In this document: positions 24,073-56,513 of the stretch, piece by piece
Position numbering within the stretch: the stretch's first letter is position 1
Layout of the letters: every line of letters begins with the position of its first letter
NCBI GenBank assembly: GCA_023898465.1
Contig: CP060223.1
Span: forward strand, 832,001-896,000
Source of the DNA: Candidatus Nomurabacteria bacterium
Lineage (GTDB): Bacteria; Patescibacteriota; Patescibacteriia; HK-STAS-PATE-3
Direction: 5' to 3'
Length of the DNA: 64,000 nucleotides
Notes under the pieces: generated by a model
Seen by the model: only the letters and a program-made list of their open reading frames with translations
Databases searched by the model: none
What the model was told of the DNA's origin: nothing
Position numbers and translations under genes: made by a program

Positions 24073-24183
24073 CGCAACCCGAGGCGTCTACTTTCCCCAA
24101 GTAGGCGCCTTTCTTCTTGACTTTTTTATCTAAGTGGATAAACATGCCCACGGACACTGTTCGACAAACCATAGGAGGCGCAC

Positions 24184-39308: not shown

Positions 39309-39309
39309 A

Positions 39310-40185
39310 TTAGCCAGTCCAATGGAACATCATAATGCTAAAATCAACCACATCAACTAAGCCACTCTTATCAATATCAGCCCTAGTGTTGGCCGGGTGT
39401 GTATCAAGCCAGTAATAAAGCAAAATACTGAAGTCGACTAAATCAACTGAGCCGTCACAGTTTAAATCAGCAATGTTTGCGTAGCTGCAAGGATCTGGTT
39501 CAGTTGCCTCACTTACTACAAAGGTGAGTGTAGAGCTGTATTCAGAAATGCTGCTATCTGTTGCAACTGCACGAGCTCGAATACTATAGGTTCCAATACT
39601 GCTCAGCTCTTGCCCGCCCTGTAACGTATAAGACCATCGTCCGTCGGTATGAGCCGTTGCAGAAAAACTTTGATCACCATCTGGACCCGAGAGATAAAGT
39701 GTAAGCTGACTATTTGGCGCGGTATAACCTTGAATTTGGACACCTTCATCTAATCGAATACTGCTTGCACTGCCTTGTATGGTGGGGCCGAGAAAAATAC
39801 CACTCGCGCTTACCGTGGTGCCCTCTGCTATAGTAACCGACAAGGATAAACTAGGACCAAGCACGCCGTCTATATCAGTTCCCTGAATAGTGAAAGTGTA
39901 GGTGCCGGCTAAAATTTCGCTCTGAGTAGCAAAAGCAGCTGTACTAGTTGCAGTCGTACTCAACCAGGTACTTCCATTTTTCAATATTTGAATACTTGCT
40001 GAGGGGTAGGCGAGGCCCTGAAACTGTACAATGGTTTTTGGTTCTTCAGGCGGAGGCGGCGCTTCAACCACCGCACTCACCGAGAGTGTGTGCTGATCTG
40101 TCACTGTAGCGGCAAAGGCGCTAAGCAAAAAAAGCGGCAGAATGCTTAGCATGCTGACGACGGCAACGATGCTCCGTGTCTTCAC
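39310..40185 (-). CDS. Secreted protein with C-terminal double dockerin repeat
   Basis: Signal peptide. C-terminus DLNCDGSVDLVDFSILLYYW...DIDKSGLVDVVDFSIMMFHW gives two Ca-binding dockerin repeats. Confidence 0.65.
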   Translation of the reverse strand: MKTRSIVAVVSMLSILPLFLLSAFAATVTDQHTLSVSAVVEAPPPPEEPKTIVQFQGLAYPSASIQILKNGSTWLSTTATSTAAFATQSEILAGTYTFTIQGTDIDGVLGPSLSLSVTIAEGTTVSASGIFLGPTIQGSASSIRLDEGVQIQGYTAPNSQLTLYLSGPDGDQSFSATAHTDGRWSYTLQGGQELSSIGTYSIRARAVATDSSISEYSSTLTFVVSEATEPDPCSYANIADLNCDGSVDLVDFSILLYYWLDTHPANTRADIDKSGLVDVVDFSIMMFHWTG

Positions 40186-40202
40186 AGGTACTCCTATCTT
40201 AC

Positions 40203-41237
40203 TTATTGCTGGTTGGCGCGAGTAAGGATCCAGTGGTTATAGCGCTTGATGCCAAAGATGACTGCAAGCACTACTACAACCAAGATGAGGAACATGAGCG
40301 TTAAGACGCGCCATGGCCACACCCAGAAGGTTAAGGTTGCGCTATCTTTTACCAAATCACCAGTACCAGCTGTCAGACTCACGCTGGCTTGATAGCGACC
40401 AAGCGCAAAGTTGTTCCATTCGTTACGGAATTCGGCCCAAAAGTTACCCCAGATATTACCTGGCGTTTCTTCTACTGTTGATTTTTCCCAGGTCGTTTCA
40501 TAGCGACGGATCGAGTCTGGTAAGGTTGCTCCGCCATTCTGATTCATGACAAGCTCAGCGCTAGTGCTGCCAAATAGATTTTTCACTACAACGCTTCCGG
40601 TTGGACGAAGGTGAATATTTCCCTCGTTTTGGAAACGAGTTGCAAAAGTCGCTGGTAAACGATTTAGACTCGAACCTTCATCTACAGTAAATTCAACGAT
40701 GCTGCCCTTTTCCTCTACGTCACCAAAAACACGGAGTAAGAAAAGCGAGCCAAGTTTGGTGCCAAGTGACACGCTGCCGGGCTCGGAATTTTCTGGTGGC
40801 TCAGTTGAGAAGAAGACAGTAGCATAATGACCACCTGGCTCGGCATCATTTGGTGGGGTGATGGTAATCGGTACCACGCGACGTTCGCCAGCTTCTAGGT
40901 GGACTGAACCATTTGGCAAAGAAAACCAAGAGGCAATATCAGGTACCTCACCGCTGAAATCATAGGTTGGAGTACCATCTTCACCAGAAGCAGTAAAGGT
41001 AGTTACCTCAGGGTAGAGGTCTACTGCGCTCTGTGTTTCATTAAATAGCTTAATTTGCGTATCAAACGGCACACCTGGATCAACCGAGGCCTCAAAAGAA
41101 GGAGGAATAAGGGTTAAGGCTTGCGCATTTGGAGTTTGCACAAAGGCAAAGCTAAAAGCAGCAACGAGCACAAATAGGCCCAGGATCGCTGTTTTTTGCA
41201 AAATGTTACTTTGTTTTCCCCCTTGATTCATCTTCAA
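40203..41237 (-). CDS. DUF916-like (CscA-like) cell-surface protein: signal peptide, beta-rich ectodomain, C-terminal TM anchor
   Basis: LTLIPPSFEASVDPGVPFDTQIKLFNETQSAVDLYPEV pattern and C-terminal hydrophobic helix plus basic tail. Confidence 0.4.
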   Translation of the reverse strand: MKMNQGGKQSNILQKTAILGLFVLVAAFSFAFVQTPNAQALTLIPPSFEASVDPGVPFDTQIKLFNETQSAVDLYPEVTTFTASGEDGTPTYDFSGEVPDIASWFSLPNGSVHLEAGERRVVPITITPPNDAEPGGHYATVFFSTEPPENSEPGSVSLGTKLGSLFLLRVFGDVEEKGSIVEFTVDEGSSLNRLPATFATRFQNEGNIHLRPTGSVVVKNLFGSTSAELVMNQNGGATLPDSIRRYETTWEKSTVEETPGNIWGNFWAEFRNEWNNFALGRYQASVSLTAGTGDLVKDSATLTFWVWPWRVLTLMFLILVVVVLAVIFGIKRYNHWILTRANQQ

Positions 41238-41272
41238 TAAAAATTCAACAATACCTGTGGATTACTTTACCA

Positions 41273-42343
41273 CTAAAATGTTGCAGTGGCAATATAGGTA
41301 ATGTCAGTGGTATAAAGTCCAGCTTCTGTATTGGCCGCAATGTTTGCAATATAGAAAGCGCTAATGTTTTCTGTTGCCGTTGGGCCAGTCTCCGAGGCAA
41401 AAGTTGTGGTCGTACTTGCCACAAAGGCCCAGTCTCGGTTACCCGGAGTTGCATTATGATCATATCCTGATGCGATGGTGGCATCACCGTCAGTTGAGTA
41501 ACTTACTCCAAACTCTTCAGTTCCAGGGGTGCCGTCAGCATCATTTGTTATTGAAGCTACATTGATGGTATCACCGCCGCTTGTTAGGGTTGCGCCGTTA
41601 TAGGTAACGATGTAGCCATCAGTAGCATTTGTACCAACGCTAATGGTATGAGCAGCAGCTGAATCGCTTGCTGAACCGTTTGTATCACCTGTTGCCCAGC
41701 GTGCATTTGAGGCACTCAAGGTACCGAAGCCAATAGTCGTGTCGGAGAGAGAAAAAGTAATAGATGCATCAACTGTGGCAGTAACATTCACACTGTCATC
41801 AGTAACGAAATCAAGTGCAAATTTACCAGAATCACCAAAGTTACCAGCTAATTCAATCACATGTGTGCTCGTATCATTTGGGCTAGTAAGCTGAGCATTT
41901 CCGCTCGCAGCGTTATTACCGATCTGCACCTGCACACAGCGATCTGCGGTAATTTCTCCGCTCGTAGCATCTGTCGGAGGAGTCAAGGTAAGCACGCTCG
42001 AGGCAAATGCAGCACCCCAAGTGCCCGCAGATGCAGTAGCCGCTAGGGTTTTATCTGAGAAAGTGCCATCACAAGCGTTATCATCATCAACCGCCAAGTC
42101 GATATCCGTGAAATCAACCGAACCTACCGTGAAATCAGTAAAGTCGATAGTAATGGTATCGGTTGAAGCGTCAACTCCGGTAGGAGTCACAAAAAGAATG
42201 GTGTGATCAGCTCCAACATTTTGCGTTAACGTATCTAAAGTATCAGAAACACTGGTTAAACCAGCAGCTTTCACCTCATACACTGGCAGTGAAAAGGCGG
42301 AGATAATGACGAGGATGAGAGCGAAAATTCCGTACTTTTGCAT
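41273..42343 (-). CDS. Secreted surface protein with a divergent WxL-like C-terminal domain (paralog 1)
   Basis: Signal peptide. C-terminal ~170 aa ...SITFSLSDTTIGFGTLS...AHTISVGTNATDGYIVTYNGATLTSG...YTTDITYIATATF follows the WxL-domain consensus with Y replacing W in both WxL motifs. Confidence 0.5.
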   Translation of the reverse strand: MQKYGIFALILVIISAFSLPVYEVKAAGLTSVSDTLDTLTQNVGADHTILFVTPTGVDASTDTITIDFTDFTVGSVDFTDIDLAVDDDNACDGTFSDKTLAATASAGTWGAAFASSVLTLTPPTDATSGEITADRCVQVQIGNNAASGNAQLTSPNDTSTHVIELAGNFGDSGKFALDFVTDDSVNVTATVDASITFSLSDTTIGFGTLSASNARWATGDTNGSASDSAAAHTISVGTNATDGYIVTYNGATLTSGGDTINVASITNDADGTPGTEEFGVSYSTDGDATIASGYDHNATPGNRDWAFVASTTTTFASETGPTATENISAFYIANIAANTEAGLYTTDITYIATATF

Positions 42344-42353
42344 AGTCTATTGA

Positions 42354-43424
42354 TTAAAAAGTCGCGGTGGCAATATATGTTATGTCGGTCGTGTACAAAC
42401 CCGCTTCAGTAATCGCGGCAATATTTGCGAGATATCGTACACCAATAGTTTCGGTGTTGGTCGGCACAGTTTCAGAAATAATTGTTGTCGTGGTGCTAGC
42501 TACAAAGGTCCAATCAGGATCACCGTGAGCATAGCCCGTGGCAATGGTTGCATCTCCGTCGGTAGTAATGCTCAATCCAAACTCTTCTGAGCCTGGTGTA
42601 CCATTCGCGTCATTATTAATTGAAGCCACGCTTATGGTATCAGAACCACTCGTTAACGTCGCACCATTATAGGTAATTGCCCAGCCATCAGTCGCGTTGG
42701 TGCTAACTGCTAGCGTATGAGCATCGGCTGAATCAGATGAAGAACCATTAGTATCGCCGGTCGCATACGTTGCTGCGCTTGAACTCAAAGTACCAAATCC
42801 TACCGTGGTGTCAGAAATAGCAAAGGTAATGGAAGGATCAACAGTCGCGGTTACGTTAACACTGTCATCGCCAACAAAATCAAGTGCAAACTTACCAGAA
42901 TCACCAAAGTTACCAGCGATTTCTACTACATGAGTACTGGTATCGTTTGGGTTATTGATCTGGTTAGAGCCACCTGAGGCGTTGCTACCAATCTGAATCT
43001 GCACACAACGTCCAGCAGTAATTTCTCCTGAGCTTGCATCAGTAGGAGGGGTCAGCGTTAACACATCAGAGGCAATCGCTGCGCCCCAAGTACCAGCCGC
43101 CGCTGAAGCCGCTAATGTCTTATCACTCCAAGATCCATCACAAGCAGCATCATCATCAACAGCAAGGTCAATATCACCAAAGGCAACGCTCGTGGTAGTA
43201 AAGTCTGTGAAGTCGATGGTAATGGTATCAGTTGAAGCGTCGACACCAGTAGGAGTTACAAAGTAAATCTCATGGTTTGCGTCAACAGCTTGAGTTAAAG
43301 TATTCAGCGTGTCAGAAATACTCGTCAAATTGGCAGCAAAAACCGGTCGAGCTGGGAAGCTCAACACCGTTACAAAAACTGCTATGAGAATGGCTATTTG
43401 TATTTTTTGTAGCTTTCCGTACAT
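42354..43424 (-). CDS. Secreted surface protein with a divergent WxL-like C-terminal domain (paralog 2)
   Basis: About 75% identical to paralog 1. Same C-terminal ending YTTDITYIATATF. Confidence 0.5.
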   Translation of the reverse strand: MYGKLQKIQIAILIAVFVTVLSFPARPVFAANLTSISDTLNTLTQAVDANHEIYFVTPTGVDASTDTITIDFTDFTTTSVAFGDIDLAVDDDAACDGSWSDKTLAASAAAGTWGAAIASDVLTLTPPTDASSGEITAGRCVQIQIGSNASGGSNQINNPNDTSTHVVEIAGNFGDSGKFALDFVGDDSVNVTATVDPSITFAISDTTVGFGTLSSSAATYATGDTNGSSSDSADAHTLAVSTNATDGWAITYNGATLTSGSDTISVASINNDANGTPGSEEFGLSITTDGDATIATGYAHGDPDWTFVASTTTTIISETVPTNTETIGVRYLANIAAITEAGLYTTDITYIATATF

Positions 43425-43505
43425 TCTGAAAGTAATATAGAGGCTAAAACTCTACAAAACAAGCTTTCTAGGTATTAGAATAGCATAAAATTGAGTTCTC
43501 GTCAA

Positions 43506-44609
43506 TTAGAAAACCGCAGTGGCAATATAAGTAATGTCGGTTTGATAAAGACCCGCTTCAGTTATAGATGCGATATTCGCAATATAATGCACAAAAATCG
43601 ATTCTGCATTAGTTGGCCCAGTTTCGCTTACAAATTCAGTTACCGTGCTCGCAACAAAATTCCAATCTGATAAACTCGGCAAAGTGCTGTTCCATTGATA
43701 GCCGGATGTGATAACTGCGTCGTCCGACTTATCTGCCGACAAAGCGAACTGCTCTGTTCCTGGTGTACCATTGCCATCATTACTAATAGTTGCAGGACTA
43801 ATGGTATCTGATCCACTTGTTAAAGTTGCTCCATAATATGTGATGGCATATCCGCTGGTAGCATTTGTGCTTACTGTTAAATTATGTGCCGGTGAACTAT
43901 TCGTCCCTGTACCGTTGCCATCACTAGTAGCATAACGAGCCGCGCTTGAACTCAAGGTGCCAAATCCTACCGTGGTGTCAGAAATAGCAAAGGTAATGGA
44001 AGGATCAACCGTTGCAGTTACGTTGACGCTATCGTCAGCAACAAAATCAAGTGCAAATTTGCCGAAGTCATCAATTGCTCCCAAATTTCCAAAAATATCA
44101 ACTACATGGGTATTGGTATCATTCGGGTTAACTAATTGAGCATTCCCTCCTGATGCATTTGTACCAATCTGAATTTGCACACATCGTCCTGCTGGAATTT
44201 CTCCACTTGTGGCATCTGTTGGCGCATCAAATATTATATATTCAGAGGAAAGCTGGTTCACCGAAACTCCCCATACACCTGCAGCATCTGAACTCGCTAG
44301 TGTTTTTTCTGTCCAAGACCCATCACATCCCCCATCATCATCAACGGCTAAATCAATGTCGGTATAATCAAGAGTTGAAAAACCAAAATTAGCGAAATCA
44401 AACCGATAATAGTCTGCGTCAGCATCTACACCAACTGAAGTAATAAAATAAATCTCATGATTTGCAGCAGTATTTTGAGTAAGCGAGCTTAACGTATCAG
44501 AAATACTCGTCAAATTGGCAGCAAAAACCGGTCGAGCTGGGAAACTCAACACCGTTACAAAAACTGCTATGAGAATGGCTATTTGTATTTTTTGTAGCTT
44601 TCCGTACAT
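43506..44609 (-). CDS. Secreted surface protein with a divergent WxL-like C-terminal domain (paralog 3); start set at MYGKL by homology
   Basis: First ~40 codons are DNA-identical to paralog 2. Ends YQTDITYIATAVF. Confidence 0.5.
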   Translation of the reverse strand: MYGKLQKIQIAILIAVFVTVLSFPARPVFAANLTSISDTLSSLTQNTAANHEIYFITSVGVDADADYYRFDFANFGFSTLDYTDIDLAVDDDGGCDGSWTEKTLASSDAAGVWGVSVNQLSSEYIIFDAPTDATSGEIPAGRCVQIQIGTNASGGNAQLVNPNDTNTHVVDIFGNLGAIDDFGKFALDFVADDSVNVTATVDPSITFAISDTTVGFGTLSSSAARYATSDGNGTGTNSSPAHNLTVSTNATSGYAITYYGATLTSGSDTISPATISNDGNGTPGTEQFALSADKSDDAVITSGYQWNSTLPSLSDWNFVASTVTEFVSETGPTNAESIFVHYIANIASITEAGLYQTDITYIATAVF

Positions 44610-44668
44610 TCTAGAAATCGAAAACATCCTAATGAATAAAACACTATAGAACTTAAGACGTCAACTGA

Positions 44669-47600
44669 CTAGAATTTGCCAGTTACCACGTAAGTGATAT
44701 CGGTTGAGTAACTTCCAGCTGGGGTCGTACCAGCCGCATTAGCAATGTAATATATGCTGAAATTCTCAGTGGCCGTGCTACCAGCTTCTGAGGCAATGGT
44801 TGTGGTGGTATTTGCTACAAAGGAATAATCAGCTGGCGAAGTAGCATCATAACCAGAGGCGATGGTTGCGTCACCGTCTGTGGTACACGCAATGCCAAAC
44901 TGCTCACTCCCAGGTGCGCCATCATCATCATTGGAAATAGTGGCCGCATTAATATCATCAGACCCACTGGTAAGTAATGGTCCATAATAGGTAAGCGCAT
45001 ATCCATCATCCGCTGAGGTACGGACTGAAATAGTATGCGCCGAGGTTTTTGTACCCGTGCCTGATGCATCGCCGGTCGCGTATCTGGCGCCAGAGGTACT
45101 TAGAGGACCAAAGCCAACGCTGGTGTCAGAAATACTGAATTGCACTGCGTCAAAATCCCAGTTAGTTGTGTTTTGGCAATCAATATTTGAAACATGACTT
45201 GAATCAATCAAGTCACCGCCAGAAGCATCAGACCGACCCACATTTACAAACTTCACTGTTTGCGCGCCACTCACGTCAAGCAACCAGGTACCTGAACCCA
45301 AGCTAGAATTACGGAAAATTATTTCACTGCCATATGTCTGCCCATCCCAGTTAATATCATTCATGGTATAGGTTGAGCCAGAGTTATACTCTACTTTTAC
45401 ATCACTCGTAGTAATAGTGTATTCACCTGCTGTAGTTGCTGCCGCCGCAAAATCAACTCCAGGGGTAAAGGAAGCTGAACAACCAGAATACGACCCACTA
45501 CTGTTTTCAATTGCTAAGTCATAAAATGACGAAGCGCTTGTCATTGTTCCGGATAACGTTTGTAGCGAGGAACCATCTAAAACAACTCGGCTATTACCAT
45601 GAGTAAAGGTGTCACTATTTGCCCAATCACCGGCCAAAGTCAGCTCAGGTGAAAAGGCTGTAGAATTTACTTTTTGCTTTGTGCCACCTTCGTTTACACG
45701 TAAGGCAACCTGAGTTGGACTTGATCCTCCGCAAGAAGGAATAGCCAACCATATGGCAAACTCTACATAAAGCACTTGATTAGTAAGCGTTTCTTCTGGG
45801 ATGCCAGTAATAAAAATGGCATAGTCATTCGTTCCTGTGCTTATATTCACATTTTTCCATCCTGAGATTGCAACCGGATTTGCTAAGTCAGCATCAGCCT
45901 TCCATAATCTTGCGTTCACTTGACGTCGTCCGTATGAGCACGATCCGGCAGTATAGACCGTTGTGATATCTACCGACCAGGTACCAGCAGCGAAGGTTCC
46001 AGTAATTGGCTGACCATTGTTAAGCATCCATCCGGTATTAGTGATAGCACTCGGAATGCTTCCATCCCATGTGGTACTTGTATTCCCTGGCACAAAAGTA
46101 CAATATCCACTTTGACCTGTGCCGGTATCGTCGCATTTCGTCGTATCATTCGATGAGCCACTCGGGTCAACCGGCTTCATGCGCCAGCTCGAACCATAAC
46201 CACTCGTGTCACTGGTCAAATACCACGCTGTAGGACCACTCAGATCAAAGGTTCCGCCAGTAATGTTTACATCTCCGTTTATATCAAGAGGATAAATGGT
46301 TTTATAGGTAGCGCTCCCCCCAGCATCGTTAAGCTCAAGGTTATTTAAATTAGTTGCCGCTAGAGATGACGCTTCACTAGTGTCGATATATTGCGTGCCG
46401 CTTGTAGCATTCAATACTAAGTTACCAGTCGACTCAATAATAGTATCATTGTTGGTAAAGTTGCCAGCAACATACAAAGTATTTGCTCCATTAAAATCAA
46501 AGGTGCCGCCATAAATAGTGAGGTATCCATTGACATCCATGTCAGTCAGGAGATTCCACTCAGCCCCACCGCCGCTATCATTAAACTCAACATTATTAAA
46601 GAAGTCACTCCCTGTTCCATCTGCATCTATATCATAGGTACCGCTGCCCGCCTGGAAAAGCACATAGCCCGATGTATGAGAGAATGTACCATCGTTGTTC
46701 CAACCTCCACCTAATATCACAAATGATGACCCCACACTCAGGGTACTATTATCAATATGTACATCAGCTGCCTGAGTGGTAATGTTGCCGGCTGGCGCAT
46801 AGGTATCACCATTCCAAATATGCAGCTCAAAACCCGAATCAAAGGTTGCCGCTGATCCTGAAACACTATATTTAATATCATCGTCACCACTATCGCCGGT
46901 ATTTAGATTGGCGTTACTGATTGATCCAGTATCAGCTCGAACAATGACTGTATTCTGATACAGATCTATATCTGTCTTTGCCACACCATCAGACACAAGC
47001 ACAGTTGTTGCCTCCTCTGTTTCGTCATCGAGATATACAGTGACAATGTCGGTTGAGTTTGCTGGCACGCTTGTAATAGACCAAGCGCCGCTGCTGTCGG
47101 TAATTTCATCAGTGTAACTACCACTACCATTCACTTTCAGTGTGACCGTTTTGTTTACACCGCTCCCATCAAGTGGTGTAGTCCCTTCATTAGTATAGGC
47201 AATACCCGAAAGGTTAATGCCAGCCGCAAAAAGCCAGTTGGTGTTGTTTAGACAGTCAGTGTTTGTACCATCAGAAGCATCAATCTGATCACCACTAGAA
47301 GCGTCAGATCGGCCAACATTCACATAGGAAACTGCAGTTTGAGTACCCGAAACATCCAGCAGCCAAGTACCTGAACTTAAATTAGAGTTTCGGAAGATAA
47401 TATCATTACCAGTAGAAGCGCTCCAGTTAATATTTGTAATTGTATAAGTGGATCCGGAATTATATTCCACCTTCACGTTATTAGTCGTGATGGTGTAGTT
47501 ATTGCTTACTGTTGCGCTGTCAGCAAAATCAATACCGGGAGTGAAAGAGGTTGAACAACCTGAGTAGCTACCTGAACTGTTGGTAATGCTAAGATTATAG

Positions 47601-50600
47601 AAAGATTCTCCATCAGAGGTTATTGTTTGCGTCGAGGACCCATCAAGAATAACAGTTGACTGATCCGCGGTGAAAGTAGCGCTCCCACCAAAAATCATGC
47701 TCCCAGCTACATTAATTGTTGTTTCATCAGTCTCAACATCATCAGTGGCATCAAGTGTCCCATTAATAGTGAAAGTACTGTTAATATCCATTTCATATCC
47801 ATTAGTGTATAGGGTATCACCGGCGGCGATCGTTAAACTCAAGTAAGTCATATCAGTACCTAAGTTCAAACTGTCAGGAGAGGTACCAACCTGGACATTA
47901 CCTTGATTCTGCTTTGTCGCATTATTATCGTAAGCAAAAACATCTGCATCAAAAATCATTGTTCCACTACCAGTCGGACCGGTAAAAAGACCTCCGCTCG
48001 CCAAAGTGAAATCGCCAGCGATATTCATATTGACATTAGCATCGGCAGTGAAGCTCCCTGCGCTAACATCAAAAGTGCCATTCACATCCATGGCATCGGT
48101 ATTACTAATACTGCCACCAGTCACATCAAAATTTTGCAGGGCGGTAGTCGCCGATGTGAGCGTCTTTGACGTGCCATCCATCTCAAGGATGTTACCTGTA
48201 GAAATAGTAGTGGTCCCATCACTTAAATCAATATTTCCCGAGACGGACCAAGTGCCTGCTCCAGTAACTATCTGACCGTTACTCGAACCAAGCTTCACAT
48301 AAGAGACATCACCTGTAATTGAAACATCAGGGTCATTGTTATCACCGGTTAATGCAACAACTTGATTGTCTTCAACGGTTACTATTAAGGATCCGCTAAT
48401 AGTATGCGTACCAGCGCCCATATCGACCAACACACTAGTGAAGGAGGTGCCATTTGTATACACTTCTACATCATTACCGTAGGTACGAGCCGGCATGGTC
48501 ATATTACCTCCAGCACCAGCATCAAAACGAACAACTGAGGAGAGGGTGCCGCCTGTTGGAATTGTTGTCGTTGTTGCTACGGTTAAGCGTCCCGCTCCAG
48601 TAATTGAACCTGATAAAGTAAAACTTGACCCGGACCAGGTAACGGTACGACCTGATGAAATGCTTAAGGTGTCACTACTAGAAACAACTAAACTATTCGT
48701 AATCTCCACATCGCTTGTCTGCACGGTGATCGTGCCTGTTGAGCTAGGATCAACTGTAAAATTATACAGACTGTTTCCACCACCGCTGAACGTTTCTGCT
48801 GTTCCAGTCATTTTTAAATCCGCTGTAGAAACGACACTATAGGTGCCGTCCTGAAAATCAATACTACCCGCCACACTCCATGCGCCAGTGCCTGGCTCAA
48901 GGTCCTCGGTGCCTGTACCAACACCTGTGAAATCAATATCTCCTCCAATAGTAACAGTTGGGTTATTTGTTGAACCGTAAAAGTGAATATCACTACCATT
49001 TGCCGCGTTTAGAGTGAAATTATCTGATACAATAATACTGCCGGATCCACCAGTCACACTCGTCGTGCCGCCAAAAGGAGCGTTATTGTAAAGTTCCACA
49101 TAGCCTCCGTAGGTCCTCGCTGACATTGTCTGGTTATTACTCGTGGCATCAAAGCGTAGATTTGCTGAAAAGGTTCCAGTCGTGGGGAAGGCGGTAGTAG
49201 ATGTATAGATAAGTAAGCCAGCTCCTGAAATAATGCCTGATAAGGTTAAGGTGGATCCGCTATGTGTTAAGGTACGGCCGGTATCAATAACGAGTTGATC
49301 ATTTGATCCGACATCTAAAGTGCCACTCACTGTCAGGTCCGAAGTTTGCAAAGTGGTGGCTCCGCCAAATAGTGCATCAATGGTGAGATTATAAAGAGTG
49401 TTTCCGCCTCCAACTATAGTCACAGCGGTGCCGCTCATAACAACGGTTGAAGTTCCAGCTGTTACTGTTCCACCAGCCATATTAAGGTTGCCAGTTATGT
49501 TGTGACTTTCACTAGAAAGAGTAACAGTGCCTGAGAGCGTGAGATTTTTATATATGTTTCCTGCAATTGTTAGCGTCCCACTCCCATCCATCACTAGTGT
49601 ATTTGTACCTTCAATGGTATAGGTGCCGTTCGTAAAGTCAGCGCTACCTGAAACAGTCCAGGTCCCGGCCCCTGAGGTAATTGTTTCAGTTCCAGCCCCT
49701 GCTCCAGTGATAAAGTCTAGATCGCCTCCGATATTTACATCAGGATCATTGGTAGCCGCATCAACCGTAACAGAACAGTTACTGTATCCTTCGATTTCAA
49801 GATTTCCATCAATCGTAATGGTCTGACTACCCGCAGATCCAAAATTAACTTCTCGAGAACTCAGACCGCAGTCAGCCTGAATATAGATACTACCCCCAAA
49901 GGTTCTGCCTGGAATAGTATGGTCAGCGGTTGTTGGGTAAAAGAAAACATTCGCGTCCATGGTCCCGGTGGACGGAAAAGTTGCTGGGGTATAGTAATAG
50001 ACATACGCATTACCGCTGATGGTTCCGTTCAACACGAGTGAGGTGCCGGTATCATTATATAAATCAAAGTAAGACCCTGACTGAAGTGCTGCTTCATCAT
50101 TCGCGGCAACGGTTAAGGTATTATCAACAGCCACGCCATCATTAATAGTGATCGTCCCTGCCGAGCTGGGATCAATCTCTAAATCATAGAATGTGGCGCC
50201 ATTTGCCCAAATATTTCCACTAGTGCCAGTCATGACAAAGGTATGCCCAGTGGCAATATTTGTTGCCCCAGGGTCACGGAGATCAAGATTACCGCCGATC
50301 GACCAGGTACCACTACCGGTCGTAATATGTTCAAAAGAGCCTGGTCCATCTTCACGATCTAAATCGCCACCAATAACCAGATCGGGATTCCAAACCGAAC
50401 CATCTATAGTTGCCGATGAACTCTGCGCATAAATTAAAAAGCTTCCGTTAATAGTAATGGTTTGTGAGGCAGCACTCCCTAATATCAACTTATAAGAAGA
50501 AAGACCTCCTTGATAGTATTCCACATCACCCTGGTAGGTACGTGCAGTCATGGTTCGATCAGCAGATCCAGAATAGTACTGCAGTAACGCGCTAATAACT

Positions 50601-53600
50601 CCCGTTGTAGGGAAGAGTTCGCTTGTCTTATAAATAACTTTTCCAGATCCTGAAATTGTACCGTCGAGAGAGATCGCCGTTCCTGTTGTCCTAATTAAAT
50701 TAACAGTCCGGCCACTATCAATTACTAATTCACCATTACTCGAGACAGTTAATACCTCTGAGATTGAAAAATCAGAAGTCTGCATAGTAATTGTTCCTGC
50801 AGAGCTTGGACTAATACTAAGATTACGTAGGGTGCGATTATCTGCCACAATGGTATTACTCGTACCCGTCATAACAAAGAGATTTCCAGATGATGAGCTT
50901 AAATTACCATTGGAGAAATCAATATCCCCTCCAACAGTCCAAGTGCCACTGCCTGTTAAAATATATTCCTGCCCGGACCCAACCCCAATATACAAAAGAT
51001 CACCGCCTATGTTTACGGTAGGATTATAGGTGGTGCCATAAATATATTGGTAATTGGTACCTGCAGCATTTATCCATAAATCACCGTCGATGGTTACTGT
51101 TTGACCTGACGAACTGCCCATATACATCACACGAGCAGTGCTTCCACTGTTGTACGCTTCCACACTACCTCCATAGGTACGACCACTTAAACGAGGATTT
51201 CCGTTAGTTGTATCCATGCGAAGATTCACGCTGATAGTGCCTGTAGTAGGAAAGTTAGTTGTCGACGCATAGCTCACCCATCCACTACCACTTAAAATCC
51301 CGTTGAGCGTAAGCACGGTGCCTGTTGTCTTTGAGAGCGTTATAAATACAGCGCTATCTAAACTAAATGTGTCGCTGGTTTGGACGGTCAAAGCGTTGCT
51401 AATGGTGAAGTCATTAGTGTTCGCAGTGATAGTTCCAGTTGAGCTTGGATTAATAACCACATTATAGTGTTGCTGATCGGTATTGAAGGTATTGCTGGTG
51501 CCGGTCATTGTGAGCGTACTAGTATTACTCGTCAGCCCTCCACTGCTTGTCATGGTGTAATTTCCTCCTACGGAAATACTGGCCGAACCAGCATATACAA
51601 CCGCGCCGCTTGAAGTATGAGAGAAATTTCCACTGATTGTTACAGGTGTTTTAGTAATCGTGAGACTGCCGGACATGCTCGTCACTGAAATGCTTGCCAC
51701 GGTTGCAACCGCACTAGTATCCCAGTCCGAGTTATCATTACTGGTACCGTCAAAAATTATATCGTCACTGGTGCCTGGACATGTATCGTTATTCCAGTTT
51801 GCACATTCAGACCAGCTGGCAGTTGTTCCATCACCATCCCATGTCTTGGTTGCGTCAGCCGCGATCTGCCAGAGTCGAGCTTCAGTAAACGCAATGCTCT
51901 CATCTCTACGAGTAAACTGCAGCGGTCCCAACTGATAGAAGAATGGTGAAACATTTGGTGCATCAAAAGTGTAAGCAAGGGTATATTCCTCTCCTGCTAG
52001 CCAATCCACTTCCCATTGAATAATGCGATGTCCATCTTGCGGATCACTTACCGTGCCATCGCCACTGATAGCACTTATCGCAAAGGTATCCGGAACCTCT
52101 TCGGTAACTATTCCCTGAAAACCCTCGCTAGTTTGAACGGTAAACTGTACCGGGTATTGAGCGGGAGGATAAATGCGTGTAGGAAACTCTGTGCGCTGTA
52201 CTGAAAAAGGCACTACATCCGCCAGAGAAAAATGATCTTGAATTTGTCGCGTGCCATCCTTGGTAGTGGCTTGTACATCAACTTGATATTCACCTTCTTG
52301 AGTCCCAGTGTAGAAGAATGAATAATCCGGCTCGTTTGTCACGCTTTTATCTACACAATCAGGGTTCTTTTCAATCGTCGCGTCGCTGGTATGAAATACT
52401 GAGGCACTGCCTGATGGATCAGTTACGGTGACATCAATATTTGCATCGCAAACTGTTCGCCCTAAATCATCCACTACTGCTAAGTGCACTTTTTGTGCCG
52501 TGTTTGTCGGGGCTAAAGACTGTCGTACATTTACTGCTACTACGCCCCAATAAAAAGTTTGTGTAAGCACTTTATCTTCCCCTAAGGCAGTCGTCGCAAT
52601 CTCAACTTCATACTTACCTGGTCGCCCAAAATCAGCTTCACTGAAACGAAGCTCTAGCTCCCCCTCAGCAGTGAGTACTTCACTCGGATCAGATTGAATT
52701 TCTTCACCAACAGGCGTACGCAACTTCACCTCTTTAACTAAAACAGTTGAGACGGGTGATTGCTTTGTTGTCTCAACCGGGTGCATCGCTTTCAGTTTCA
52801 TCACCGGCTCTTCATCAGCTTGAATAACCTGTGTTTCAGTTTCCAAACTTAGATCATCGCTAGAAGGAAGTGGGATAAAGATGGGTGTTTCATTTGTCCT
52901 TTCATCTACGTGTAGCTGCCACGCGTGCTGCTCAGACCAGCTACTTCCATAGGTCTGATTATTTCGAAACTCGGCAAAGCCATCGGCACGAAGCGGACCA
53001 AGAACAAAAGATTGAGGTGTCTGCTCCGGGGCTTTCACGACATAGGAGAGGCTAGCTGATTCACCTTTTTTCCAAACTACAGACCACTGCAACTCATCGC
53101 CAATTTGCTTTCCCCCTTGCCCAACACTACTTATTTTTAAATTGGCAGGTATGGGCTCTACAACGGTGCCAATATAGTCGTCTCCAACCACAAATTCTAA
53201 AAAGACATCGTAACTCTGTTTAGGCACCAAGCGGGTTGGAGCGATTCGCGTCAGCTGCAAATTTGTCTGCTCAACAACCTCTAAAGTGCTTTGCGCTCGA
53301 TATGTGCCAGCGTATGAGGATGCATCTAAGCGTATTCGATACTCGCCAACTTCATCGAGAGGAAAGGAGGCCAAATAATCGGCCACGCTACTCACTACAT
53401 CAGGACTGCAGTCCTCTGAGCGCTGGATACCTTCAGTCAATGCATAGTCATTGTGCACACCTGATGGTGAAATCGTCTCAATATGCACATCCGCATTGCA
53501 AATTGTCCTACCATTATTATCAAGAAATCCTAGGGAAAGTTGCGCAGTATCATTTAATTGATAGACTGATCGAGCGTCGTTCATAATAACCACTCCCCAG

Positions 53601-54697
53601 TCAAAAGCCTTACGAATGGTTTGCACTACGTCATCTTGCTGCAATGTAAAGACGGCAATATAGCGACCGGGTGTATGAAAATTTTCCCTATCAAATGACA
53701 CTAGGGTTTGCTGACCCCCGCTCACTTTTTCTGCAGTAGTATGTACTGCGGGGTGATATTCCTTATCATCAGGATCGATGAGAGAAACGGATTGAATGTT
53801 GCGTTGGAGTGGCTTCACACCCAAGAAGCCAAACGATGAATTTTCTTCAGTTTGGATTTTTACTTGCGGAGTATCGAGTGAGAAAAAGGTTGTCGCGTCC
53901 ATTTGCACATATTCACCTAAGCGCAAGCTTGTCTTTGCTTCTCGTCGATAGGTGAGTTGGAGGCGAGCGCCATCAAAATAGGCTGTAGCTGAGTCAAGCG
54001 GCGGCTCTGGAATATATCGTACGCGCACCATAAAATCCTTCGCTTGGGTAAGTGCATCAATGCCATCGATGTGATAAGTCCAGTATCCACTGTGTCGTGC
54101 ATTACTTTGCTCTTCCAGAAGCGCAAAAGAGTCTAGGGAAATCCAATTAATTCCACCGTCAATTGAATACGCAAAAACTACAATATCCTCGTTATTTGCA
54201 TAAGTATTTGCCGCGAAAGAAAGATCAAGCATGGCATCAATATCAACTGCATCAGCTGGAATAGCATCAGAAAAAGCAAAATCCCCGCAGGTCAACCAAG
54301 CCTCGCCATTCTGTAAGGGCTGCGCATCTATGTTATCAGGACTGTTTTGAAACCAAGCCGCATTCTCACGCGTAAAATCGCCTGCATCAGCAGATCCAGG
54401 CAAATCAAGCTCCTGGGCTCCTTCGGTAAAATTCCATCCTTCGCAAGACCCGGGATTAAGTTGGACTGCACTTTCGCCAGCTACCAACATTTTTTGTCGG
54501 ACGTAGTAGGCGCTCTGAAAATCAACCGGCTGCAATGCGGGCAAAAGAAATAGTCCAGCCACAAGCAGGGTAAAAATACCAAGCAATCCTAGCGCTTGGC
54601 CGGTATGAACTACCTGCGTATGCATCTGCAATTGTGCCTTCGGATTTTTCTTTGTTCTTTGACGTGGTGTCGGCACCGAAGCCCCCTCGAAAAGCAA
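44669..54697 (-). CDS. Giant (3342 aa) surface adhesin-like protein: N-terminal TM/signal, two ~350-aa N-modules, about seven ~135-aa tandem repeats, S/T/G/N-rich filler and the same WxL-like C-terminal domain
   Basis: Single 10-kb ORF. The repeat unit (TMTGTSNTF...GTIT.QTSDF.IS..LTV....L.IDSGRTV...GT...L.G.ISG.G...Y.....FPTTGT) recurs over roughly 48.4-51.7 kb. C-terminus ...SVGFGPLSTSGARYATGD...AHTISVRTSADDGYALTYYGPLLTSG...YSTDITYVVTGKF. Confidence 0.75.
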   Translation of the reverse strand: MLFEGASVPTPRQRTKKNPKAQLQMHTQVVHTGQALGLLGIFTLLVAGLFLLPALQPVDFQSAYYVRQKMLVAGESAVQLNPGSCEGWNFTEGAQELDLPGSADAGDFTRENAAWFQNSPDNIDAQPLQNGEAWLTCGDFAFSDAIPADAVDIDAMLDLSFAANTYANNEDIVVFAYSIDGGINWISLDSFALLEEQSNARHSGYWTYHIDGIDALTQAKDFMVRVRYIPEPPLDSATAYFDGARLQLTYRREAKTSLRLGEYVQMDATTFFSLDTPQVKIQTEENSSFGFLGVKPLQRNIQSVSLIDPDDKEYHPAVHTTAEKVSGGQQTLVSFDRENFHTPGRYIAVFTLQQDDVVQTIRKAFDWGVVIMNDARSVYQLNDTAQLSLGFLDNNGRTICNADVHIETISPSGVHNDYALTEGIQRSEDCSPDVVSSVADYLASFPLDEVGEYRIRLDASSYAGTYRAQSTLEVVEQTNLQLTRIAPTRLVPKQSYDVFLEFVVGDDYIGTVVEPIPANLKISSVGQGGKQIGDELQWSVVWKKGESASLSYVVKAPEQTPQSFVLGPLRADGFAEFRNNQTYGSSWSEQHAWQLHVDERTNETPIFIPLPSSDDLSLETETQVIQADEEPVMKLKAMHPVETTKQSPVSTVLVKEVKLRTPVGEEIQSDPSEVLTAEGELELRFSEADFGRPGKYEVEIATTALGEDKVLTQTFYWGVVAVNVRQSLAPTNTAQKVHLAVVDDLGRTVCDANIDVTVTDPSGSASVFHTSDATIEKNPDCVDKSVTNEPDYSFFYTGTQEGEYQVDVQATTKDGTRQIQDHFSLADVVPFSVQRTEFPTRIYPPAQYPVQFTVQTSEGFQGIVTEEVPDTFAISAISGDGTVSDPQDGHRIIQWEVDWLAGEEYTLAYTFDAPNVSPFFYQLGPLQFTRRDESIAFTEARLWQIAADATKTWDGDGTTASWSECANWNNDTCPGTSDDIIFDGTSNDNSDWDTSAVATVASISVTSMSGSLTITKTPVTISGNFSHTSSGAVVYAGSASISVGGNYTMTSSGGLTSNTSTLTMTGTSNTFNTDQQHYNVVINPSSTGTITANTNDFTISNALTVQTSDTFSLDSAVFITLSKTTGTVLTLNGILSGSGWVSYASTTNFPTTGTISVNLRMDTTNGNPRLSGRTYGGSVEAYNSGSTARVMYMGSSSGQTVTIDGDLWINAAGTNYQYIYGTTYNPTVNIGGDLLYIGVGSGQEYILTGSGTWTVGGDIDFSNGNLSSSSGNLFVMTGTSNTIVADNRTLRNLSISPSSAGTITMQTSDFSISEVLTVSSNGELVIDSGRTVNLIRTTGTAISLDGTISGSGKVIYKTSELFPTTGVISALLQYYSGSADRTMTARTYQGDVEYYQGGLSSYKLILGSAASQTITINGSFLIYAQSSSATIDGSVWNPDLVIGGDLDREDGPGSFEHITTGSGTWSIGGNLDLRDPGATNIATGHTFVMTGTSGNIWANGATFYDLEIDPSSAGTITINDGVAVDNTLTVAANDEAALQSGSYFDLYNDTGTSLVLNGTISGNAYVYYYTPATFPSTGTMDANVFFYPTTADHTIPGRTFGGSIYIQADCGLSSREVNFGSAGSQTITIDGNLEIEGYSNCSVTVDAATNDPDVNIGGDLDFITGAGAGTETITSGAGTWTVSGSADFTNGTYTIEGTNTLVMDGSGTLTIAGNIYKNLTLSGTVTLSSESHNITGNLNMAGGTVTAGTSTVVMSGTAVTIVGGGNTLYNLTIDALFGGATTLQTSDLTVSGTLDVGSNDQLVIDTGRTLTHSGSTLTLSGIISGAGLLIYTSTTAFPTTGTFSANLRFDATSNNQTMSARTYGGYVELYNNAPFGGTTSVTGGSGSIIVSDNFTLNAANGSDIHFYGSTNNPTVTIGGDIDFTGVGTGTEDLEPGTGAWSVAGSIDFQDGTYSVVSTADLKMTGTAETFSGGGNSLYNFTVDPSSTGTITVQTSDVEITNSLVVSSSDTLSISSGRTVTWSGSSFTLSGSITGAGRLTVATTTTIPTGGTLSSVVRFDAGAGGNMTMPARTYGNDVEVYTNGTSFTSVLVDMGAGTHTISGSLIVTVEDNQVVALTGDNNDPDVSITGDVSYVKLGSSNGQIVTGAGTWSVSGNIDLSDGTTTISTGNILEMDGTSKTLTSATTALQNFDVTGGSISNTDAMDVNGTFDVSAGSFTADANVNMNIAGDFTLASGGLFTGPTGSGTMIFDADVFAYDNNATKQNQGNVQVGTSPDSLNLGTDMTYLSLTIAAGDTLYTNGYEMDINSTFTINGTLDATDDVETDETTINVAGSMIFGGSATFTADQSTVILDGSSTQTITSDGESFYNLSITNSSGSYSGCSTSFTPGIDFADSATVSNNYTITTNNVKVEYNSGSTYTITNINWSASTGNDIIFRNSNLSSGTWLLDVSGTQTAVSYVNVGRSDASSGDQIDASDGTNTDCLNNTNWLFAAGINLSGIAYTNEGTTPLDGSGVNKTVTLKVNGSGSYTDEITDSSGAWSITSVPANSTDIVTVYLDDETEEATTVLVSDGVAKTDIDLYQNTVIVRADTGSISNANLNTGDSGDDDIKYSVSGSAATFDSGFELHIWNGDTYAPAGNITTQAADVHIDNSTLSVGSSFVILGGGWNNDGTFSHTSGYVLFQAGSGTYDIDADGTGSDFFNNVEFNDSGGGAEWNLLTDMDVNGYLTIYGGTFDFNGANTLYVAGNFTNNDTIIESTGNLVLNATSGTQYIDTSEASSLAATNLNNLELNDAGGSATYKTIYPLDINGDVNITGGTFDLSGPTAWYLTSDTSGYGSSWRMKPVDPSGSSNDTTKCDDTGTGQSGYCTFVPGNTSTTWDGSIPSAITNTGWMLNNGQPITGTFAAGTWSVDITTVYTAGSCSYGRRQVNARLWKADADLANPVAISGWKNVNISTGTNDYAIFITGIPEETLTNQVLYVEFAIWLAIPSCGGSSPTQVALRVNEGGTKQKVNSTAFSPELTLAGDWANSDTFTHGNSRVVLDGSSLQTLSGTMTSASSFYDLAIENSSGSYSGCSASFTPGVDFAAAATTAGEYTITTSDVKVEYNSGSTYTMNDINWDGQTYGSEIIFRNSSLGSGTWLLDVSGAQTVKFVNVGRSDASGGDLIDSSHVSNIDCQNTTNWDFDAVQFSISDTSVGFGPLSTSGARYATGDASGTGTKTSAHTISVRTSADDGYALTYYGPLLTSGSDDINAATISNDDDGAPGSEQFGIACTTDGDATIASGYDATSPADYSFVANTTTTIASEAGSTATENFSIYYIANAAGTTPAGSYSTDITYVVTGKF

Positions 54698-54825
54698 AAA
54701 AAGTTGTTACATTATACCATTTTTTGCCTGTAACGTCGATTAAAGAAAAAGGGAATATAGCACCGTACTATCACAAGACAGCCATGCGGTCATGGAAGAG
54801 ATAATTTAAACAAAGTTCCTTTGTG

Positions 54826-55218: not shown

Positions 55219-55222
55219 AGCT

Positions 55223-55675: not shown

Positions 55676-55708
55676 ACCCTACGGCTTCTCTTGTTTTTTT
55701 GCAACTGG

Positions 55709-56512: not shown

Positions 56513-56513
56513 A

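Follow-up and report, generated by a model that had tools for sequence, protein, structure and literature searches.

The window, that is, the whole 64,000-nucleotide stretch of DNA analysed here, carries on its minus strand (36863–54697) eight genes that probably form an operon for a Pam-type pilus (Table 1). Cryo-EM structures of homologous PamA/PamB filaments have been reported for Candidatus Mycosynbacter amalyticus and a donor-strand model has been put forward (Troman et al., bioRxiv 10.64898/2026.03.03.709456, 2026 preprint). An earlier note on this DNA had picked out five co-directional genes (an anchored protein, three ~360-aa paralogues and a giant adhesin), each of which proved to be an open reading frame where it had been placed; the limits given for the locus, 40203–54697, were too narrow, as three more operon genes lie at 36863–40185, tightly packed, co-directional and within the same conserved operon. 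Just upstream of the gene for the giant lies a possible operon promoter, the best of the sigma-70-like sites in this region; the count of such sites in the region does not exceed that in shuffled sequence.

Table 1 Features of the probable pilus operon (positions in the window)
Feature	Position	Strand	Evidence or comment
Possible operon promoter	54711..54739	-	TCGACG-17-TATAAT, extended -10
Giant, 3342 codons from TTG	44669..54697	-	N-terminal signal/anchor helix
Pam pilin C-terminal (acceptor) domain of giant	44669..45190	-	NF058581 76.9 bits, domain alone
Pilin paralogue 3, 373 aa	43506..44627	-	NF058581 71.9 bits
Pilin paralogue 2, 356 aa	42354..43424	-	NF058581 67.4 bits; same architecture
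Pilin paralogue 1, 356 aa	41273..42343	-	NF058581 72.1 bits; AF2 model
Donor strand predicted in pilin 1, residues 184–192	41768..41794	-	SVNVTATVD
Chaperone-like protein, 344 aa	40203..41237	-	Counterpart of PamC/PamD
Dockerin adaptor, 291 aa	39310..40185	-	PF00404 25.4 bits, cut-off 22.9
Donor-strand-like segment of adaptor, residues 34–40	40066..40086	-	LSVSAVV, close behind predicted signal-peptide cleavage site
Cohesin-like membrane anchor 1, 381 aa	38163..39308	-	Weak PF00963 matches in orthologues
Cohesin membrane anchor 2, 457 codons	36863..38236	-	PF00963 25.6 bits, cut-off 24.1

The shared C-terminal domain and the pilins

As the earlier note had seen, one ~170-aa domain ends all four larger proteins. 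The copy in the giant is 54–58% identical to those of the three paralogues, with 72 invariant columns and the blocks GFG.LS, AHT..V.T.A..GY..TY.G..LTSG and Y.TDITY..T..F-COOH; every subunit closes with T-x-x-F-COOH. All four proteins score 67–77 bits against NF058581 (“Pam pilus system pilin subunit”; curated cut-off 55 bits), and the NCBIfam E-values for the domain, 1e-18 to 1e-21, place the similarity far beyond chance. By sequence, the domain is the Pam pilin C domain, CPR_Pam_pilin_C, and the suggestion that this system had not been described is superseded by that family and by the Pam preprint. The domain occurs in 797 cluster representatives (50% identity) and is C-terminal in 150 of 150 among the matches listed.

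The same domain had been read as a WxL domain with Tyr in place of Trp. The substitution is the rule, with Y at the two aromatic motif positions in 134 and 137 of 147 family representatives and W in 3 and 1, but it is not uniform even in this operon, where pilin paralogue 2 has W at motif 1 (DGWAITY). WxL membership was not detectable at any level: PF13731 (WxL) matched no member of the C-terminal domain family, HHalign against WxL gave a probability of 3–7% (P ~0.005), inside the range of the controls, and the top fold matches did not include the solved WxL chain. Because a confident match to an unrelated family such as a pilin was what the earlier note itself had named as refuting its proposal, the NF058581 result means that the WxL reading of this domain fails.

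Pilin paralogue 3, which probably starts at Met7, comprises a signal peptide, an N-terminal beta-sandwich, the linker DDSVNVTATVDP and the Pam C-terminal domain. In an AF2 model of pilin 1 (pLDDT 94.2), ~10 strands form the N-terminal domain (residues 30–177), the linker (181–194) is extended and unpaired, and the strands of the C-terminal domain occupy residues 195–354. The predicted donor strand between the two domains is identical in all three paralogues. Ahead of the C-terminal domain, a relaxed form of the motif, V-x-[VI]-T-A-T-V, is present in 64/64 pilins from 55 loci and in 1/30 large proteins.

Putative chaperone, giant and proposed base

The 344-aa protein has an N-terminal signal peptide, a DUF916-homologous Ig domain, a second Ig-like domain and a C-terminal TM helix. 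The earlier assignment of this protein as DUF916-like is borne out: PF06030 (DUF916) matches 49 of 70 members of the chaperone family (best E 2.9e-7), the top match of the family profile among PDB sequences is EfmWxLIP1 (E 0.016), and HHalign against six annotated WxLIPs gives probabilities of 93–95.5% (controls P 0.12–0.52). Its AF2 model (pLDDT 93; two Ig domains and a TM helix) has Enterococcus faecium WxLIP (9i1y/9i25_C, E 5e-11 to 2e-10) as its top three Foldseek matches in the PDB, followed by CfaA, CsuC, YadV, DraB and Caf1M (E 4e-9 to 3e-7). It is a genuine DUF916/WxLIP homologue that is also PapD/CsuC-like, and it fits the membrane-anchored Pam chaperone; none of the NCBIfam Pam models recognizes the chaperone or any PamR-like protein.

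The giant had been given as 3342 aa; its open reading frame has that many codons, whereas the database protein begins at Met25 and has only 3318 aa, and the ATG at 54625 is the probable start. Two tandem modules of ~345 aa (residues ~263–948) are followed by about six T/S/G-rich repeats of ~205–250 aa (~1019–2218), and a ~190-aa module is present in duplicate (2336–2529 and 3025–3218). Ahead of the C-terminal domain, where the pilins have SVNVTATVD, the giant has CQNTTNWDF, and the strict donor-strand motif is absent across its whole sequence. Against the PamT tip model its C-terminal domain scores 48 bits, higher than the 24–32 bits of the pilins; these 48 bits are far short of the 240-bit cut-off of this equivalog model. 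We infer that the giant is the tip adhesin.

The 291-aa adaptor consists of a signal peptide, LSVSAVV, a PPPP linker, two Ig-like domains (Big_13) and a C-terminal type I dockerin. Dockerin adaptors carry the strict donor motif in 36/38 cases, and in the adaptors listed it follows immediately on the signal peptide; the figures are 1/66 for chaperones, 1/80 for cohesin proteins and 27/2735 for unrelated open reading frames; we infer that the adaptor is both pilus terminator and base adaptor. Cohesin anchor 1, which has no Pfam match of its own, contains a signal peptide, a cohesin-like domain, an Ig-like domain and a C-terminal TM helix, and anchor 2, with a likely start at 38188, has a cohesin, a Big_13 domain, a TM helix and a Cys-rich cytoplasmic tail. 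Judged from these domains, the adaptor dockerin and anchor cohesins are an apparent tether at the pilus base.

Proposed assembly and its precedents

In our model, Sec would export all subunits and the filament would be built by donor-strand exchange without an usher. The anchored chaperone would donate a strand to cap the groove left open in each C-terminal domain, and the three pilins would polymerize head-to-tail as the shaft, each subunit placing its linker strand in the C-terminal domain of the one before it. Because the giant has an acceptor domain and no donor linker, it could only occupy the distal tip, where it would show ~3,100 residues of repeat-rich adhesin as a fused equivalent of PamT, analogous to FimH/PapG. 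The adaptor, with a donor strand at its mature N terminus and no acceptor, would fill the last groove, so that growth stops. Its dockerin would then bind the cohesins of the two TM-anchored proteins, tethering the pilus to the membrane, an arrangement that would stand in for PamR, which in Ca. M. amalyticus is a single TM-anchored terminator. Strand insertion by chaperone, pilins and adaptor is proposed from the sequence motifs and by analogy. The likely function of the pilus is to reach and attach to a host cell.

This operon and the Pam system, in which filaments were seen directly, share the pilin C-terminal domain, two-domain pilins (beta-sandwich, linker strand and truncated Ig-like C-terminal domain), several pilin paralogues per operon, Sec signal peptides on all components, a chaperone that ends in a TM helix, the lack of an usher and a CPR host. 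They differ in the tip, here a ~3,300-aa fusion as opposed to the 241-aa single-domain PamT (model NF058579), in having one chaperone instead of PamC and PamD, and in the donor-strand/dockerin adaptor with two cohesin-TM anchors that stands in for the RbmA-like TM terminator PamR; the ATP-synthase, CorB and MFS neighbourhood reported for pam operons is missing around the operon here. The Pam preprint mentions neither WxL or DUF916 nor dockerin or cohesin. The Gram-negative chaperone–usher pili (Fim/Pap, CFA/I class 5, archaic Csu and Caf1) offer the chaperone fold, donor-strand complementation and exchange, a two-part tip adhesin with a C-terminal pilin domain lacking a donor strand, and a dedicated terminator subunit with PapH-like logic. 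Unlike those systems, there is no outer membrane or usher here, the chaperone is membrane-anchored, the pilins carry an extra N-terminal domain, and, the adaptor excepted, the donor strand lies in the linker between two domains and not in an N-terminal extension.

Alternative readings and distribution

An unlikely alternative, though the best placed of those considered, is a non-filamentous WxL/Csc-type complex in which the WxLIP-like TM protein holds the four proteins on the cell surface as separate adhesins and their C-terminal domain, a WxL variant with Tyr, binds the cell wall. In WxL/Csc clusters of Lactobacillales and Listeria, WxL is PF13731 and WxLIP is DUF916 (PF06030) plus DUF3324 (PF11797); the PDB entries are 9i1y and 9i25, the latter a WxLIP–long WxL complex. 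There, too, a TM-anchored two-Ig protein, its first domain homologous to the one here, is encoded beside secreted proteins, some small and some large, with a common domain at the extreme C terminus and, in the large ones, N-terminal adhesion modules, so the parallel in gene set drawn by the earlier note is real. Published AF2 modelling of WxL clusters has a DUF916 strand inserting into the WxL domain (PMC10599100), which, like 9i25, speaks for the chaperone role in our model. For the WxL reading, three motifs are collinear with the WxL motifs under permissive alignment, and in an L. plantarum plasmid cell-surface protein beside a DUF916/DUF3324 gene the second motif position is Y. Against this, the partner domain scores above the cut-off of the curated Pam pilin model and is not recognizably WxL, DUF3324 is not detectable by sequence in the 344-aa protein (P 0.33), the host is CPR and not Bacillota, and neither an LPXTG sorting signal nor a sortase signature was found within the window. 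An inter-domain donor strand in the pilins implies polymerization, and in a non-polymerizing complex neither the conserved linker found in all pilins nor the copy of it borne by the adaptor would have a role. The sugar-binding role once proposed is unsupported. Analogy to WxL at the level of the system stands, and homology is supported for the chaperone of this operon, a relative of one of the proteins encoded in the WxL surface clusters that have long been a puzzle in lactic acid bacteria.

We regard as improbable a cellulosome-like cohesin–dockerin scaffold displaying proteins, the giant included, for polymer binding or degradation, with the C-terminal domain proteins as unrelated cargo. Dockerin and cohesin do exceed their Pfam cut-offs, and, as in cellulosome anchoring (for example, by clostridial scaffoldin-anchoring proteins), one secreted protein bears a type I dockerin that has two F-hand repeats, and neighbouring genes encode cell-bound proteins with cohesin modules. 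However, none of the operon proteins has a detectable catalytic or CBM domain, the only protein with a dockerin also bears the pilin-like donor motif, the cargo is apparently a pilus and not enzymes, and the anchors are fixed through TM helices and not through SLH domains or sortase. The dockerin and cohesin genes also strictly co-occur with Pam pilins and the chaperone, which argues for one integrated machine: the adaptor is present in 39 of 49 loci with a chaperone and, together with the cohesin genes in the same order, in 37 of 49, several of the remainder appearing truncated at contig ends. It is highly improbable that the operon encodes a Gram-positive pilus of the sortase type or a self-assembling matrix fibre like TasA/BslA, given that LPXTG and sortase signals are missing from the window, that the subunits have T-x-x-F-COOH ends and that a dedicated chaperone-like gene is always nearby, next to them.

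The gene order, from the giant through pilin(s) and chaperone to the dockerin protein and the cohesin-TM proteins, recurs in ~37 other CPR genomes. Carriers are labelled Kerfeldbacteria, Uhrbacteria, Nomurabacteria, Paceibacterota and Microgenomatus, together with uncultured Saccharibacteria (TPA bin labels) and unclassified Patescibacteria. The source organism of the window is an ultrasmall CPR/Patescibacteria bacterium.

A probable Pam-type pilus operon

Five minus-strand open reading frames (ORFs), comprising a giant gene, three shorter paralogs and a 344-aa protein, lay exactly where the earlier note had placed them. Its limits for the locus were too narrow, as three further same-strand genes follow directly downstream of the 344-aa protein, with ends that overlap or nearly abut.

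Features of the operon and its surroundings (positions in the window)
Feature	Position	Strand	Domains and matches
Operon, eight genes	36863-54697	-	
Giant	44669-54697	-	Shared C-terminal domain
Pilin 3	43506-44627	-	Shared C-terminal domain
Pilin 2	42354-43424	-	Shared C-terminal domain
Pilin 1	41273-42343	-	Shared C-terminal domain
Similar 5' ends of pilin genes 2 and 3	43236-43427; 44421-44612	-	
Chaperone, 344 aa	40203-41237	-	Signal peptide, C-terminal transmembrane (TM) helix
Dockerin adaptor, 291 aa, secreted	39310-40185	-	Ig-like domains; C-terminal type I dockerin (PF00404, 25.4 bits vs cut-off 22.9)
Cohesin anchor 1, 381 aa	38163-39308	-	Cohesin-like domain, C-terminal TM helix; orthologs with weak PF00963 matches
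Cohesin anchor 2, 457 aa	36863-38236	-	Cohesin (PF00963, 25.6 bits vs cut-off 24.1), C-terminal TM helix
Cys-rich tail of cohesin anchor 2	36863-36960	-	
Beta-propeller protein, 700 aa	34783-36885	+	PF09826, E 5e-98
Overlap of beta-propeller gene 3' end with operon	36863-36885		
RND transporter	28242-31397		AcrB/AcrD/AcrF type, full length (PF00873, E 6.5e-148)
PEP-utilising ORFs	17621-22227; 33780-34745		Terminal PEP-utilising mobile domain (three ORFs); N-terminal part of PEP synthase (321-aa ORF)
msrB to msrA genes	54826-58120	-	
weev_FSE match, 27 nt	24083-24109	-	Rfam, 40.1 bits vs gathering score 40

The giant and the three paralogs (356, 356 and 373 aa; mutual identity 61-75%) end in a common domain of ~170 aa, as had been proposed, with 54-58% identity between giant and paralogs and 72 invariant columns. 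The paralogs matched the NCBIfam model NF058581 (CPR_Pam_pilin_C, 'Pam pilus system pilin subunit') at 72.1, 67.4 and 71.9 bits and the giant's C-terminal domain alone matched it at 76.9 bits, placing all four proteins at 67-77 bits against a curated cut-off of 55. The four also gave weaker NCBIfam matches to the model of the tip pilin PamT. Pfam returned no match in the paralogs and, in the giant, no more than a weak Y_Y_Y match. Sequence searches of the PDB, run with one pilin and with a pilin profile, gave no match. Among the matches listed in an exhaustive HMMER search, the domain ends single-domain forms of ~190-250 aa, pilins of ~330-390 aa and, commonly, proteins of 500-3,574 aa.

The Pam pilus was first described in 2026 from one cultured species, the CPR parasite Ca. 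Mycosynbacter amalyticus, whose filaments, studied by cryo-EM, contain the pilins PamA and PamB, in which a single linker strand joins an N-terminal beta-sandwich of ~9 strands to a C-terminal domain and which polymerise by insertion of one subunit's linker into the C-terminal domain of its neighbour; its pam operon further encodes the PapD/FimC-like chaperones PamC and PamD, each with a C-terminal TM helix, the single-domain tip PamT and an RbmA-like, TM-anchored terminator, PamR (10.64898/2026.03.03.709456). In an AF2 model of pilin 1 (pLDDT 94.2), residues 30-177 form about ten strands, residues 181-194 an extended linker that is unpaired, and residues 195-354 the strands of the C-terminal domain; this predicted two-domain layout agrees with PamA and PamB as these are described. 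In 64 of 64 two-domain pilins from 55 loci, D-x-V-x-[VI]-T-A-T-V-D-P stands immediately in front of the C-terminal domain, and the window pilins carry it in an identical form (SVNVTATVD), suggesting that this conserved linker is the donated strand and the counterpart of the 'highly conserved donated linker' of Pam.

The pilin domain, pilin architecture, conserved linker, TM-anchored chaperone and CPR host are all shared with the published system, and we consider it very probable that the locus belongs to Pam. As a whole, the eight genes probably form a Pam-type donor-strand-exchange pilus operon, predicted to build extracellular helical filaments. The operon differs from the published one in its putative fused giant tip adhesin, in a predicted cohesin-dockerin anchoring module that would take the place of PamR, and in lacking the published ATP-synthase neighbourhood. 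At their 5' ends, pilin genes 2 and 3 share 86% DNA identity and specify the same signal peptide and the same mature N-terminus (MYGKLQKIQIAILIAVFVTVLSFPARPVFAANLTSISDTL), whereas the three pilin genes are 69-82% identical elsewhere, a pattern that suggests recent duplication or gene conversion.

The shared domain, the chaperone and WxL clusters

The earlier note had interpreted the locus as a WxL-type surface complex, reading the shared domain as a WxL variant with Tyr for Trp and the 344-aa protein as DUF916-like. Only the latter identification stood. Tyr does predominate at the two aromatic positions (134 and 137 of 147 representatives), with exceptions that include Trp in 3 and 1 representatives, respectively, and at the first position in one window paralog. 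However, none of 67 family members matched the WxL family PF13731 in Pfam, even at E<=10, and all four domain-bearing proteins instead exceeded the cut-off of the Pam pilin model. For the Pam C-terminal domain, a deep profile built from representatives of the exhaustive search, as well as a shallow one, was compared with a WxL reference profile built from annotated clusters (PF13731 in all of the at least 120 matches listed). HHalign probability never exceeded 7% with any profile or in local, greedy or global mode. Only the final strand was aligned (AGsYsTtlTY with A..YsttltW; P 0.005, probability 7%), and one unrelated control profile reached P 0.013 in the same comparison. The three motif blocks that had pointed to WxL were collinear with it in the permissive greedy mode, without statistical support. 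The locus is not a member of the WxL family, because the defining WxL domain was sought and not found; in WxL clusters, two or more proteins end in that domain (PF13731, with dual W-x-L motifs). A regex scan for the LPXTG sorting signal and the TLxTC sortase signature, features of WxL clusters that the earlier note had proposed to look for elsewhere in the genome, found neither in any window ORF. WxL clusters also differ in host (Bacillota rather than a CPR bacterium), and their small and large proteins ending in one domain are paralleled by the size classes of the Pam domain. On an L. plantarum plasmid (CP096863.1, locus L004:5225-5812), a small 'cell surface protein' is encoded beside a DUF916/DUF3324 gene. 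Its last residues are GTYSGTIDYNIS, where Tyr takes the place of the second Trp of WxL proteins; the Y/W exchange may thus occur in Lactobacillales clusters too.

The chaperone is homologous to WxLIP, the protein of WxL clusters that combines DUF916 (PF06030), DUF3324 (PF11797) and a TM helix. As first noted, it begins with a signal peptide and has a hydrophobic C-terminal helix; basic residues come after the helix. Its AF2 model (pLDDT 93.0) shows a pair of Ig-like domains and, at residues 309-343, a long C-terminal helix. The best three Foldseek matches in the PDB were to E. faecium WxLIP (9i1y and 9i25 chain C; E 5e-11 to 2e-10), 9i25 being 'WxLIP bound to long WxL', in alignments of 265-269 columns across both domains. 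By itself, the window chaperone was below threshold for PF06030 (E 0.25, 11.8 bits); 49 of 70 family members matched it (best E 2.9e-7), and the best PDB sequence match of the family profile was EfmWxLIP1 (E 0.016). HHalign aligned the family with six annotated WxLIPs from Lactobacillales and Listeria plasmids at 95.5% probability, and at 93% (E 3e-7) after removal of the signal peptide and TM helix, compared with P 0.12-0.52 for five unrelated control profiles. The second domain gave no sequence signal to DUF3324 (P 0.33), and PF11797 was outside the best 25 Pfam families by members matched. The protein also fits the description of the Pam chaperones in its predicted PapD/FimC-like fold and C-terminal TM helix; an NCBIfam scan of the family yielded no match to a Pam chaperone model.

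The homology of chaperone and WxLIP links the system to the WxL/Csc clusters and suggests donor-strand complementation as a mechanism for them. An AF2 prediction in the WxL literature has a DUF916 strand inserting into the WxL domain (PMC10599100), by analogy the same logic as that of a chaperone complementing its subunit. Neither WxL, DUF916, dockerin nor cohesin is mentioned in the Pam preprint (10.64898/2026.03.03.709456), and we found no mention of WxL in the searched literature on donor-strand or chaperone-usher assembly. One speculative extension, which we hold to be doubtful, is that one ancient donor-strand system of monoderms branched into the Pam pili seen in CPR bacteria and the WxL/Csc clusters seen in Bacillota. 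If so, WxLIP would act as a donor-strand chaperone anchored in the membrane, the WxL domain would be a divergent acceptor and a homolog of the Pam C-terminal domain, and the WxL complexes regarded for 20 years as 'peptidoglycan-binding' would be strand-complemented assemblies. The CPR branch would in addition tether its pilus by a cohesin-dockerin pair and cap it with adhesins of several thousand residues, neither of which is mentioned for published Pam. WxL/Csc clusters of enterococci, listeriae and lactobacilli include virulence-associated loci.

Chaperone-usher pili share a PapD-like two-domain chaperone with the operon, at the level of fold only: after WxLIP, Foldseek retrieved CfaA, CsuC, YadV, DraB and Caf1M (E 4e-9 to 3e-7; TM-scores 0.49-0.57, normalised to the target), and PapD_N/C were outside the best 25 Pfam families for the chaperone family. 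These pili also depend on an outer-membrane usher, and none was matched in the eight operon proteins and scanned neighbours. We also weighed, and rejected, interpretations of the locus as a sortase pilus, an S-layer, a TasA-like fibre or a cellulosome.

Proposed filament ends and membrane attachment

The putative donor strand is distributed unevenly among the operon's proteins. The giant has CQNTTNWDF at the linker position and the strict motif nowhere in its 3,342 residues; even a relaxed motif preceded the C-terminal domain in only 1 of 30 large (>=500 aa) domain-bearing proteins. In dockerin proteins, [VIL]-x-[VI]-[ST]-A-x-V lies a short distance past the site of signal-peptide cleavage and precedes a spacer rich in Pro or Gly (TLSVSAVVE-APPPP in the window adaptor). 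The strict motif was present in 36 of 38 dockerin adaptors, compared with 1 of 66 chaperones, 1 of 80 cohesin proteins and 27 of 2735 other ORFs. The pilins, with donor and acceptor, would form the shaft; the adaptor, with a donor only, would terminate it; and the giant, as an acceptor without a donor, would occupy the tip. Presence or absence of the VxVTATV strand would thereby predict each subunit's place in the filament. Taken jointly, these assignments of tip, terminator and cohesin-dockerin attachment are somewhat favoured over their failure.

As the giant has the C-terminal domain and no donor linker, we infer that it is the functional equivalent of PamT. It is no PamT by sequence: the equivalog model of this single-domain tip pilin (NF058579) has a cut-off of 240 bits, and the best score, that of the giant's C-terminal domain, was 48.4. 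The operon encodes no small protein consisting of the C-terminal domain only. Read from its TTG, the giant gene has 3342 codons; the database protein begins at Met25 (3318 aa). The protein is rich in Thr, Ser and Gly, and although a whole-protein blastp self-search found nothing, fragment-based blast comparison revealed two tandem modules of ~345 aa at residues ~263-948, and about six repeats of ~205-250 aa, 31-46% identical, at ~1019-2218. A further module of ~190 aa occurs twice (2336-2529 and 3025-3218; 59-65% identity), and its second copy runs into the C-terminal domain. No informative match was found in Pfam, NCBIfam or PHROGs, and a tail-fibre relationship was rejected for want of a PHROGs match.

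At the membrane, PamR joins an N-terminal strand and a C-terminal TM helix in one protein. The operon encodes no single protein of that kind; its donor-like strand is on the dockerin protein and the TM helices are on the cohesin proteins. Domain matches place the type I dockerin and the cohesins on separate proteins, and their pairing would provide the membrane link that PamR supplies directly in M. amalyticus. Cohesin-dockerin pairs may therefore terminate and tether this pilus; no such report for pili was found in the searched literature. Cohesin anchor 2 has a Cys-rich cytoplasmic tail after its TM helix (RRKCDCCCCQNGCSKKCC), absent from aligned orthologs, which could be a metal-binding or acylation site.

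Related loci and neighbouring genes

A large part of bacterial diversity is accounted for by CPR bacteria, which spend their lives attached to hosts. A profile search with the four-sequence alignment of the C-terminal domain, covering one genome per GTDB species, identified 51 further loci, which we annotated with local HMMs. The order giant (3,654-5,666 aa), pilin(s), chaperone, dockerin protein and cohesin-TM proteins recurred on contigs with 41-58%-identical chaperones. Among 49 chaperone-bearing loci, 39 had a dockerin protein and 37 had both dockerin and cohesin proteins; several of the remainder apparently end at a contig edge. The operon represents a second architecture, shared by no fewer than 37 other sampled CPR loci. 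Its giant adhesins, putatively at the tip, vary between lineages and are likely to determine host range. A minority layout (for example, loci L032, L044, L045 and L057; also L035 and L040) alternates pilin genes with genes for two to four chaperone paralogs; its pilins have a different N-terminal domain and no dockerin adaptor lies directly downstream. These loci resemble the published M. amalyticus pam operon, and the split between the two types may follow CPR lineage.

The DNA comes from a 1.08-Mb metagenome-assembled genome (MAG) labelled Candidatus Nomurabacteria, and named homologs are labelled Patescibacteria or unclassified 'bacterium', a distribution restricted to CPR/Patescibacteria apart from oddly labelled bins. 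Of the 51 species-representative loci, L056 (JANLXT010000336.1) has the same operon in a MAG labelled 'candidate division FCPU426', and TPA bins with it (for example, L012, L014, L019, L030 and L038) are labelled uncultured Gammaproteobacteria, Pseudomonadales or Bdellovibrionales. Such bins are probably mislabelled or mis-binned CPR contigs; transfer of the operon outside CPR is possible.

Sites from a promoter and terminator scan of the region did not exceed shuffled expectation and serve as suggestions only. The Rfam match to weev_FSE, a viral frameshift element, is almost certainly due to chance. The beta-propeller gene is convergent with the operon, its 3' end overlapping the last operon gene by 23 nt, and the full-length RND transporter lies in a genome that is presumably monoderm CPR. 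A PEP-utilising mobile domain ends each of three separate ORFs, of 536, 367 and 521 aa, and a 321-aa ORF has a match to PEP synthase that is confined to the N-terminal ~330 residues of the latter; the four resemble a family, split or multiplied, of the PEP synthase/rifampicin-phosphotransferase-like kind. Upstream of the operon lie msrB, a gene for a C39-like cysteine peptidase domain protein, genes for an ABC-2 permease and an ABC ATPase, and msrA, so that two methionine sulfoxide reductase genes bracket a predicted small export module.
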